4,346 nt of DNA, taken from IMG/VR virus record IMGVR_UViG_2711768005_000011. The stretch is one strand, 5' to 3'. Positions 1,787-4,346 of the stretch are shown here, piece after piece (positions within the stretch are counted from its first letter, which is position 1; every line of letters starts with the position of its first letter). Source of the stretch: a virus (Duplodnaviria; Heunggongvirae; Uroviricota; Caudoviricetes). Made by a program: the position numbers and the translations under genes. Under the pieces are notes generated by a model. It searched no databases. It was not told where the DNA came from and worked only from the letters and a program-made list of their open reading frames with translations.

Positions 1787-2982
<1,196 letters not shown>

Positions 2983-2986
2983 TTAG
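2983..2986. repeat. IS5 target-site duplication, right copy (TTAG)
   Basis: TTAG immediately right of the IS5 right inverted repeat; matches 1783..1786. Confidence 0.85.
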
Positions 2987-3614
2987 CATAAACATCCAGA
3001 TTACCATCGCCTTTTTGTTTAAAGCCCGTGTCATTATCACCCAATACAATCGAATTACCGCCAAGAGCACTGGATGTTCCGATACCCAGTGCACCATTCA
3101 GTTGACCACCAGATAACGGCAGTGCACCAACATCTCCTGCTGAAGGTTTTCTGGTGGTGTAAAATTCGGACCAGTCGGCTTCAAAACCATAACCATCACG
3201 GGCTGAACGATAAAAAATACCGCCATTTTTATAATTAATCCGAAACTGAGCTGCAGGACAACTTCCTTCTCCCATATAAAAATGAATAATTAACGTTGAT
3301 GCACCACTAATAGTTGCGTTATAGGCTCCGCTACTCCAGTTCCATCCAACTGCTTTATCATTCGCAACGGTGCTTCCTGTTTTCCCTAAGGCAAACGCAC
3401 CAACATGACTTGCTTTTAATGTGATATCGGAGGAACCATCAAAAGCCACATTGCTTATTTTCCTGGCAGTTTTTAATTTTGCAGCTGTAGAAGCATTGCC
3501 GGATAGTTCACCAGAAAGGCCACCGCTGAATGTTTGTCGATTAGTCCAGGTATTCGCTGTACTGAGTAACGGTATTTTCTCCCCGCTTGTGCCGAGTTCT
3601 CGTAAACCGAGGTT
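2983..3614 (-). pseudogene. Side tail-fibre alternative cassette, N-terminal portion of the variable region (from the crossover site to the IS5 junction)
   Basis: Minus-strand frame opens inside the crossover site (in-frame TAA at 3617..3615) and reads NLGLRELGTSGEKIPLLSTANTWTNRQTFSGG ... FDGSSDITLKAS ... GDGNLDVYA up to the IS5 junction. Track ORF 2874..3449 is the lower part of this frame; its last ~37 codons are IS5 sequence. It resembles lambdoid side tail-fibre (Stf) C-terminal regions as I recall them. Confidence 0.75.
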
Positions 3615-3622
3615 TTAGATAA
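3597..3622. other. Gin/Pin/Cin/Hin-family recombination crossover site (gix/pix-like), right boundary of the invertible segment
   Basis: TTCTCGTAAACC GA GGTTTTAGATAA is a 26-bp imperfect palindrome with the AAACC-NN-GGTTT core characteristic of serine-invertase crossover sites. It lies ~55 bp upstream of the invertase start, and the minus-strand fibre cassette frame begins in its inner half. Confidence 0.8.
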
Positions 3623-3676
3623 TGGCGGTTTCTGGCCTGCATGGCATGATTTGTGCTTTTGGACGGGAGATTCAGC

Positions 3677-3916
3677 GTGCTGATTGGCTATGTAAGGGTA
3701 TCAACAAATGACCAGAATACAGACCTGCAACGAAACGCTCTTGTTTGTGCAGGATATGAACAAATATTTGAAGATAAATTAAGCGGAACAAGGACAGGCC
3801 GACCTGGATTAAAACGTGCTTTAAAGCGCCTTCAAAAAGGTGACGCACTGGTTGTCTGAAAACTGGACTGACTGGGGCACTGTATGCGGCATCTTGTCGT
3901 GCTGGTGGTGGAAGCC
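3677..3916 (+). pseudogene. pin: Serine DNA invertase (Pin/Gin/Cin/Hin family), N-terminal ~60 codons intact then disrupted by stops
   Basis: GTG at 3677 with GGGAGA at 3663..3668. Reads VLIGYVRVSTNDQNTDLQRNALVCAGYEQIFEDKLSGTRTGRPGLKRALKRLQKGDALVV, a recognisable invertase N-terminus with the catalytic-Ser region. Then TGA at 3857..3859 where W is expected, KLD, TGA at 3869..3871 where R is expected, and LGHCMRHLVVLV. A full-length invertase would be ~190 aa. The ATG at 3653 used by the ORF track has no SD and is probably not the start. Confidence 0.8.
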
Positions 3917-4003
3917 TAGAAAAAGTATCGGGTGTTGCTGAACCGTGTTGATACATCAACTGCACCTGATATTGAGTGGCCTACGAACCCTGTCAGGGAG
4001 TAA
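3917..4003 (+). pseudogene. Remnant of the 3' end of a tail-fibre assembly (tfa) gene, in frame with the invertase fragment
   Basis: Same frame as the pin fragment reads EA, TAG (3917..3919), then KKYRVLLNRVDTSTAPDIEWPTNPVRE and TAA (4001..4003). This parallels the C-terminus of the intact Tfa in this window ([25 protein letters not shown]), with the conserved Trp codon replaced by TAG. Confidence 0.5.
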
Positions 4004-4017
4004 TCATTGGGATTATG

Positions 4018-4050
4018 CCGCAGCACGTCTTAAGCAAGAACGTGCTGCGG
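4018..4050. terminator. GC-rich stem-loop, possible terminator between convergent transcription units
   Basis: CCGCAGCACGT (4018..4028) pairs perfectly with ACGTGCTGCGG (4040..4050) around an 11-nt loop. It lies between the tfa-like remnant stop (4003) and the stop of the convergent minus-strand ORF (4058..4060). A T-run at 4061..4066 follows on the + strand, but 10 nt from the stem. Confidence 0.4.
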
Positions 4051-4060
4051 TTGGATGCTA

Positions 4061-4346
4061 TTTTTTCCCTGAAGCGGAAAACATTACTACAGTACCTTGA
4101 ACCTTGGTTTTAACATTCTCGAAATGCTCTGAGAGTATATGTGTTAAGCCTTCTTCGGAATCTTTTGTGTTTGAAAAGATGCCTTTCTGATTGTAAATGC
4201 GCATCAGTTTTTGACCGAAGCTATTGTGCACAACTCCATCGCCAAGAATTGTGGCTCCGTATAGAGTTCCATCGTCAGTTAAGGCCTGCGCCGCATTGCG
4301 TATTACACAGCTTTTTGTAGATATATTTCCAGGCAGGCAGTGAAGA
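4061..4346 (-). CDS. Hypothetical protein, C-terminal ~95 codons (5' end beyond the right edge of the window)
   Basis: Uninterrupted minus-strand frame from the window edge to TAG at 4060..4058: LHCLPGNISTKSCVIRNAAQALTDDGTLYGATILGDGVVHNSFGQKLMRIYNQKGIFSNTKDSEEGLTHILSEHFENVKTKVQGTVVMFSASGKK. The other two minus frames are closed. No family recognised. Not in the ORF track because no start codon lies in the window. Confidence 0.55.

Follow-up and report, generated by a model that had tools for sequence, protein, structure and literature searches.

Which gene lies at the right edge of this tailed-phage sequence, and what would its product do for the bacterium that carries it? The sequence, called the window here, is a stretch of 4,346 nucleotides (nt) from IMG/VR virus record IMGVR_UViG_2711768005_000011 (Caudoviricetes), and the window is always meant at its full length. 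The gene enters from the right on the minus strand, where positions 4346 to 4061 read as 95 codons without a stop, giving the protein LHCLPGNISTKSCVIRNAAQALTDDGTLYGATILGDGVVHNSFGQKLMRIYNQKGIFSNTKDSEEGLTHILSEHFENVKTKVQGTVVMFSASGKK (translation of window:4061-4345). The visible protein ends in ...VVMFSASGKK, and a TAG stop codon follows at 4058 to 4060 (minus strand, read from the sequence and from the end of the open reading frame [ORF]). A first-pass annotation made from the sequence alone had described a clean frame of about 95 codons, visible only as a C-terminal fragment, for a protein that it did not recognize. The frame and its partial state were borne out; the protein proved recognizable. 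With near certainty, the fragment is part of ybcY, a gene of Escherichia coli K-12 prophage DLP12 that encodes a class I S-adenosylmethionine (SAM)-dependent methyltransferase. This gene is already catalogued, annotated, and very common among E. coli accessory genes, and the locus does not represent a new system.

Identification rests on several comparisons. Apart from a single polymorphic position, the 95 visible residues correspond to residues 128 to 222 of a 222-amino-acid (aa) protein that thousands of genomes carry, and a match of this extent means that the open frame did not arise by chance. Because the frame extends past the window edge, the program-made ORF list held just its inner 57-aa portion (4058 to 4231). 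At the nucleotide level, positions 3906 to 4346 are 98.9% identical to DLP12 across the 3' end of tfaD and ybcY (b0562), and the visible part of ybcY is 99 to 100% identical to phage and prophage copies. A megablast search of 3600 to 4346 against complete RefSeq E. coli genomes returned the region in hundreds of genomes, with the ORF annotated as a 222-aa "class I SAM-dependent methyltransferase," and a 2025 phage record attaches the note "YbcY" to the same gene. Translation, nucleotide identity, and the family alignment agree that 4061 to 4346 (minus strand) is the 3' part of ybcY, codons 128 to 222 in the 222-aa numbering or about 43% of the gene, while the other 127 codons and the promoter fall to the right of the window edge. 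The portion in view spans motif IV (LHCLPG), strands β5 to β7, and the C-terminal region GATILG...HN.FG.KLM..YN.KGIFSN..D. It is very likely that this frame holds the 3' 43% of the gene for a 218-aa class I methyltransferase, and that the gene forms a self-contained moron at the tail-fiber end of a lambdoid prophage.

Intact ybcY products are 218 to 222 aa long. Counting coding sequences at ≥80% coverage and ≥95% identity, ybcY is present in 3,799 of 5,426 complete E. coli genomes (~70%), with up to 4 copies per genome. Among 50,697 phage records it occurs in 15, every one an Escherichia phage, and the two that were examined (ev243 and PhiR26_1) show a lambda-like arrangement of genes. Strains NCTC86 and EC958 have ybcY at one end of the lambdoid prophage that is inserted in ompW, adjoining the trp operon; this ompW/trp position in the closest relatives of the window differs from the DLP12 site in K-12. 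The DLP12 gene is nonetheless the same gene (intact alleles, RefSeq WP_000240999 and WP_134388450; PHROG 2132), in the same layout as here: a tfa end, antisense ybcY, its promoter, and a tfaX-type tfa remnant. The two loci differ in the left neighbor, which is a pin remnant fused to a tfa end in the window and a whole tfaD in K-12, and in the state of ybcY itself. The K-12 copy is a pseudogene, with ATG changed to ATA at Met5 and a 2-nt deletion, whereas the visible part of the window copy is intact. Outside Escherichia, short contigs from a "Bacillus sp." and a "Planococcaceae" metagenome-assembled genome (MAG) carry ybcY DNA that is 99 to 100% identical to that of E. coli, most likely as bin contamination.

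Enzyme class and candidate substrates

The only Pfam families found in YbcY are methyltransferase domains. Methyltransf_12 matched at 37.7 bits (cutoff, 30), and Methyltransf_23, _25, and _11 were also above their cutoffs. This agrees with the first-pass annotation, which had excluded an invertase and seen no HNH-type signature like that of McrA, and an HNH endonuclease analogous to McrA of e14 was rejected as a candidate on the same result. PHROG 2132, a family of unknown function, matched at E = 1.2e-156 over residues 5 to 222 of full-length YbcY. None of the more specific NCBIfam equivalogs was reached: PmtA scored 14.6 bits (cutoff, 390), RquA 16.5 (cutoff, 175), and CpaM 17.5 (cutoff, 180), and YbcY resembles the PmtA, UbiG, and RquA equivalogs in fold alone. 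Clusters of distant relatives are named only "class I SAM-dependent methyltransferase" or carry an automatic "UbiE" label.

In an alignment of 30 YbcY homologues (56 to 89% identity), about 60 positions are invariant. Motif I, the SAM-binding loop D59-I-G61-V-G63-T-G65 (DIGVGTG), is among them and is encoded outside the window, as are D81 (MDLN, at the end of β2; the acidic position for the ribose hydroxyls) and D106 (HDVF, motif III; the acidic position for adenine), both of which align with their counterparts in UbiG. T64, H105, and H129-C130 are likewise conserved across the 30 sequences, as is the LHCLPG that follows β4. Motifs specific to the family are an N-terminal YDWWVL...SN..AW.C and the C-terminal region spelled out above.

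The first-pass annotation had proposed structure prediction and a remote-homology search as checks, and once run, both pointed to a class I SAM-dependent methyltransferase. The AlphaFold2 model (predicted local distance difference test [pLDDT], 90.7; predicted template modeling score [pTM], 0.87) predicts the seven β-strands of a methyltransferase fold and an N-terminal lid of helices rich in aromatic residues. In a Foldseek search against the PDB, the top match was a phosphatidylethanolamine N-methyltransferase (8ys9; E = 6e-12; TM score, 0.62 to 0.65), followed by juvenile-hormone acid methyltransferase (JHAMT), phosphoethanolamine methyltransferases, NodS, SgvM, and UbiG. By sequence and by profile, the only PDB matches were JHAMT (2e-5) and UbiG (2e-3). 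PmtA (8ys9), JHAMT (7ec0), UbiG (4kdc), Coq5, and DhpI all combine a Rossmann-type SAM core with an N-terminal helical lid, as YbcY does, yet identity to YbcY is just 12 to 21% at TM scores of 0.53 to 0.67, and no substrate-binding residues could be matched between these enzymes and YbcY. Since many enzymes are about equally similar to YbcY and such residues could not be aligned, none of these matches allows a substrate to be assigned by analogy. The class, a predicted class I Rossmann-fold SAM-dependent methyltransferase, is secure, and the model suggests that the substrate is most likely a small molecule or a lipid. A search for a membrane-binding helix in YbcY revealed no strongly amphipathic segment (maximum hydrophobic moment, 0.40). 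Among distant homologues, one is fused to a cytochrome P450 and one to RCC1 (lichen-fungus MAG), which are weak hints at small-molecule chemistry.

Other substrates can be weighed against the same data. The degrees of confidence given in this text to a host-benefit role, an RNA or protein substrate, a relic, a defense function, and a DNA methylase are not mutually exclusive as to the identity of the gene. A phage DNA methyltransferase, either an orphan anti-restriction enzyme or part of a restriction-modification system, would protect phage or host DNA, and a SAM-dependent methyltransferase in a prophage fits the idea of restriction-type cargo, as with mcrA in e14. Orphan DNA methylases are also frequent in temperate phages. 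The 218-aa YbcY, however, contains neither a (D/N/S)PP(Y/F/W) nor a PCQ motif and has no extra domain or room for target recognition, and no DNA methylase was among the top structural matches of the model, which makes this reading extremely improbable. An enzyme that methylates RNA (tRNA or rRNA) or protein, and thereby tunes the host's translation or a protein of the host or the phage, is also unlikely, although less remotely so. The better-ranked structural matches with assigned functions are all small-molecule or lipid enzymes, JHAMT and UbiG are the sole sequence-profile matches, and the allele from E. coli phages has a neutral pI (6.9). An invariant aromatic-rich lid (Y24, D25, W26, W27, and W37) suggests a hydrophobic pocket, and the P450 fusion in one homologue also speaks against a macromolecular substrate of this kind.

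Cassette structure and the adjoining tail-fiber module

Between ybcY and the gene that converges on it lies a G+C-rich hairpin at 4017 to 4050, common to both genes and assigned to neither strand, which was recognized by folding and by a second copy at about 10460 to 10500 of the NCTC86 locus (L001). It has about 15 bp and one bulge. In a 76-nt context its minimum free energy is −28.6 kcal/mol on the plus strand and −25.4 kcal/mol on the minus strand; none of 200 shuffled sequences was as stable, and z is about −4 in either orientation. The first-pass annotation was thus right about a strong hairpin; its distance from the stop codon is 7 nt (4051 to 4057) in place of the 8 nt reported. A simple consensus terminator scan did not flag the hairpin on either strand, and a T-run is found 10 nt past the stem on the plus strand, with none on the minus (ybcY) strand.

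A second copy of the tfa end and hairpin, 89% identical, lies on the far side of ybcY, where no ORF abuts it. In NCTC86 the direct repeats are at about 9300 to 9455 and 10355 to 10503 of the same locus, and their K-12 counterparts are tfaD and tfaX. Since the hairpin recurs with the second tfa end, it belongs to the tfa 3' repeat and not to ybcY; it is probably a late-operon terminator or a 3'-end stabilizer. In every close relative examined, ybcY is antisense to the late operon and bracketed by two direct copies of the tfa 3' end plus hairpin. Two such direct ends supply the cassette with homology arms for recombination between tfa-bearing phages, and we infer that these duplicated ends account for the spread of ybcY among tfa-bearing prophages.

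K-12, phage ev243, and NCTC86 share one identical sequence, TTGATT-17 nt-TATAAC, upstream of ybcY and outside the window. This sequence is the ybcY promoter that has been listed among the constitutive RpoD (sigma-70) promoters of K-12, with an H-NS site (PMC3946193). The −10 element abuts the annotated ybcY ATG, and Met5 is the first residue both of all homologues aligned and of the PHROG profile match. For these reasons the real product is probably the 218-aa protein that starts at Met5, translated from a message with a very short leader.

Antisense orientation, a predicted promoter of its own, the hairpin just past the stop codon, and a patchy presence in phage records and E. coli genomes are the marks of a moron, and the prediction is well supported that ybcY, between its tfa homology arms, is cargo of the moron type under its own promoter. 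The first-pass suggestion of a cargo gene next to the tail-fiber genes therefore stands, with the location now placed at the tail-fiber end of a lambdoid prophage, and the comparison with related prophages that it had called for puts ybcY at the equivalent position, between tfa 3' ends, in near relatives. The lambdoid morons lom, bor, and ompT/appY (DLP12) are likewise independently transcribed cargo of the same prophage region, and in phages ev243 and PhiR26_1 ybcY lies within about 3 kb of ompT. Their products are envelope proteins with known phenotypes, in contrast to YbcY, a cytoplasmic-type enzyme.

To the left of the hairpin, the module has decayed. The last ~30 codons of a tfa gene form a 3' remnant at 3906 to 4003 (plus strand; stop codon TAA at 4001 to 4003), as judged from the NCTC86 annotation, identity to K-12 tfaD, and alignment of the repeats; of the two homology arms around ybcY, this is the left one. 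Fused to it is a dead pin-type invertase at 3677 to 3905 (plus strand), recognized from the sequence, the ORF list, and the annotation of relatives, of which the N-terminal ~76 codons are left; from its start at 3677 it runs through two in-frame TGA codons (3857 to 3859 and 3869 to 3871) to a truncation near 3905. At the NCTC86 locus (99.4% identical), the same pair stands directly to the left of ybcY on the plus strand, with pin labeled "recombinase family protein, incomplete" and the tfa remnant labeled "tail fiber assembly protein, missing N-terminus," and the frame does converge on an invertase and a tfa remnant as had been noted. Upstream of the dead pin gene, TTCTCGTAAACCGAGGTTTTAGATAA at 3597 to 3622 is what we take to be a gix/hix-like crossover site. 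With pin interrupted by two in-frame TGA codons, truncated, and fused to the tfa 3' end, the tail-fiber inversion switch is frozen. Positions 371 to 1786, which hold a tfa/tfa' pair and the adjoining stf ends, match NCTC86 (6673 to 8088 of L001) only in reverse, at 92% identity, so the invertible segment has been fixed in the opposite orientation, or the alleles have been swapped, relative to NCTC86.

An IS5 copy of ~1.2 kb at 1787 to 2982 (transposase ORF at 1855 to 2835) is inserted in the minus-strand tail-fiber gene stf', with the 4-bp target duplication TTAG at 1783 to 1786 and 2983 to 2986. The IS5/stf junction was not found in complete RefSeq E. coli genomes, IMG/VR contigs, or JGI metagenome contigs, and the arrangement of the window to the left of ybcY was absent from the near-identical loci examined. 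RefSeq also annotates a 45-aa "hypothetical protein" (WP_001309429.1) at 3976 to 4113 on the plus strand. This is probably a spurious gene call, because the frame crosses the hairpin and overlaps the 3' end of ybcY in antisense.

Homologues, genomic context, and maintenance

Could the window copy be a decaying, functionless relic of a defective prophage, as the K-12 gene is? Several observations lean that way: the K-12 pseudogene itself, truncated or duplicated ybcY variants in databases (P0001 and others), dead neighbors in the window (pin, with its two nonsense codons and truncation, and stf', split by IS5), and the fact that the window copy is seen without its 5' 127 codons. Against this, all 95 codons in view are intact, with a single residue different from the commonest ybcY allele, and of 40 copies sampled evenly across the E. 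coli ranking, 39 are annotated as a methyltransferase gene and the sole pseudogene is that of K-12. The ratio of nonsynonymous to synonymous substitution rates (dN/dS) between the phage ybcY allele and homologues at 75 to 83% identity is 0.10 to 0.15, and a value of about 0.1 implies that the protein is maintained by strong purifying selection. Taken with this evidence of a family kept by selection, a relic is an unlikely description of the window copy. The first-pass annotation had also raised the case of a frame closed just beyond the edge with no start; this does not apply to the gene itself, which is full-length in all close relatives examined. P0001, a 265-aa E. coli protein, is a ybcY allele with an internal tandem duplication of ~43 residues (AALHGQFDSISMFYLLHCLPG...YGAT repeated) and is a case of sporadic decay among otherwise intact copies.

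A word-indexed search found 2,294 YbcY homologues, and 797 were obtained at E ≤ 1e-10 when 50%-identity representatives were searched exhaustively. In species-representative genomes, 270 relatives were confirmed, from Enterobacterales, Pasteurellaceae, the Pseudomonas syringae group, Xanthomonadales, and Oxalobacteraceae. Homologues at 50 to 68% identity are chromosomal or island genes of Gammaproteobacteria, outside prophages. Salmonella STM1638 and other chromosomal relatives share with YbcY full-length identity in this range and the ~60 invariant residues, among them the YDWWVL, DIGVGTG, HDVF, and LHCLPG motifs; unlike ybcY they are not phage borne. STM1638 is flanked by a PMT_2 glycosyltransferase gene on one side and by the small RNA gene rydC and cybB on the other. 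The gene, 56% identical to ybcY at the protein level (7001 to 7663 of locus L006), lies ~120 nt upstream of rydC on the same strand (7784 to 7849; Rfam RF00505, 86.6 bits). RydC is an activator of cfa, the gene for another lipid methyltransferase that depends on SAM; the adjacency is probably a coincidence. An Enterobacter homologue adjoins liv transporter genes, and others lie in insertion sequence (IS), PerC, or adhesin islands. In all contexts, YbcY-family genes are monocistronic, and the chromosomal relatives stand alone.

Among 139 nearest neighbors from 72 YbcY-family loci, no partner family was common across lineages. Three candidate partners were considered and rejected. Genes for alpha/beta-hydrolases or esterases are neighbors in phage ev243, Enterobacter, Erwinia, and an E. 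coli island, but the four genes are mutually nonhomologous and esterases are not enriched among the 139 neighbors. In 13 Pseudomonas loci of the P. syringae group (L061 to L102), a 230-aa ECH_1 (enoyl-CoA hydratase) gene lies ~110 to 260 nt downstream on the same strand, usually with a CorA-like transporter gene next. An IbrA-like gene (PAPS_reduct plus DUF3440) with a partner of ~212 aa adjoins YbcY-family genes in six Proteus species (six loci, among them L078 at 1823 to 3709) and in one E. coli island (5618 to 7470 of L021). The enoyl-CoA hydratase and IbrA-like genes were dropped as operon partners, each being a lineage-specific synteny.

These neighborhoods also bear on whether YbcY could be an anti-phage defense protein, a superinfection-exclusion effector, or a counter-defense gene. 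The first-pass annotation had argued that the junction beside tail-fiber genes is a prophage hotspot for cargo with restriction, anti-phage, or toxin functions, and the IbrA-like PAPS-reductase/DUF3440 gene pair beside homologues in Proteus and one E. coli island could be read in the same sense. The best match in PADLOC-DB 2.0, however, was mad2 at E = 0.017 (12 bits), no partner gene is conserved across lineages, and most homologues sit in ordinary chromosomal neighborhoods outside mobile elements. With DNA-methylase motifs absent and a fold like that of small-molecule methyltransferases, the restriction, anti-phage, or toxin role was not upheld, and a defense function is very unlikely.

A proposed role in lysogens

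The first-pass annotation had expected an uncharacterized function here, and in this it was correct. We consider it reasonably likely that ybcY is expressed in lysogens, where its product would methylate a small and probably hydrophobic metabolite, a lipid, or a xenobiotic for the benefit of the host. In the mechanism that we propose, ybcY would be expressed in the lysogen from its own sigma-70 promoter, and YbcY would use SAM to methylate, on O or N, an acceptor of this kind (a metabolite, a lipid head group, or a xenobiotic), much as enzymes of the UbiG, JHAMT, or PmtA type do. The benefit would be conditional and would go to the host, not to the virion or to phage DNA, and the gene would travel as a lysogenic-conversion moron, transferred between tfa-bearing phages by recombination at the tfa ends.

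Several points weigh against this proposal. No reported substrate or phenotype for ybcY, b0562, or STM1638 was found in the literature searched, in which these genes are mentioned only as neighbors, as promoter entries, or in one negative result. Deletion of ybcY in K-12 left Hha toxicity unchanged, and the K-12 copy is in any case a pseudogene. H-NS binding at ybcY could mean that the gene is usually silenced. The window copy could also be broken upstream, in the 5' 127 codons outside the window, since the adjoining module has decayed (IS5 in stf and a dead pin gene).

A more specific and more far-reaching version, to which we give a low probability, is that YbcY is an unrecognized lysogenic-conversion enzyme that methylates a specific envelope lipid, a quinone, or an exogenous small molecule such as a toxin, signal, or antimicrobial and would thereby alter host fitness or phage susceptibility. 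If true, lysogenic conversion of this kind would explain both the spread of ybcY to ~70% of E. coli genomes and the strong purifying selection on its product. The gene is among the most widespread cargo genes of E. coli prophages and belongs to a family found across many Gammaproteobacteria, and its packaging between two tfa 3' ends illustrates how a moron may bring along homology arms of its own for spread among tail-fiber modules.
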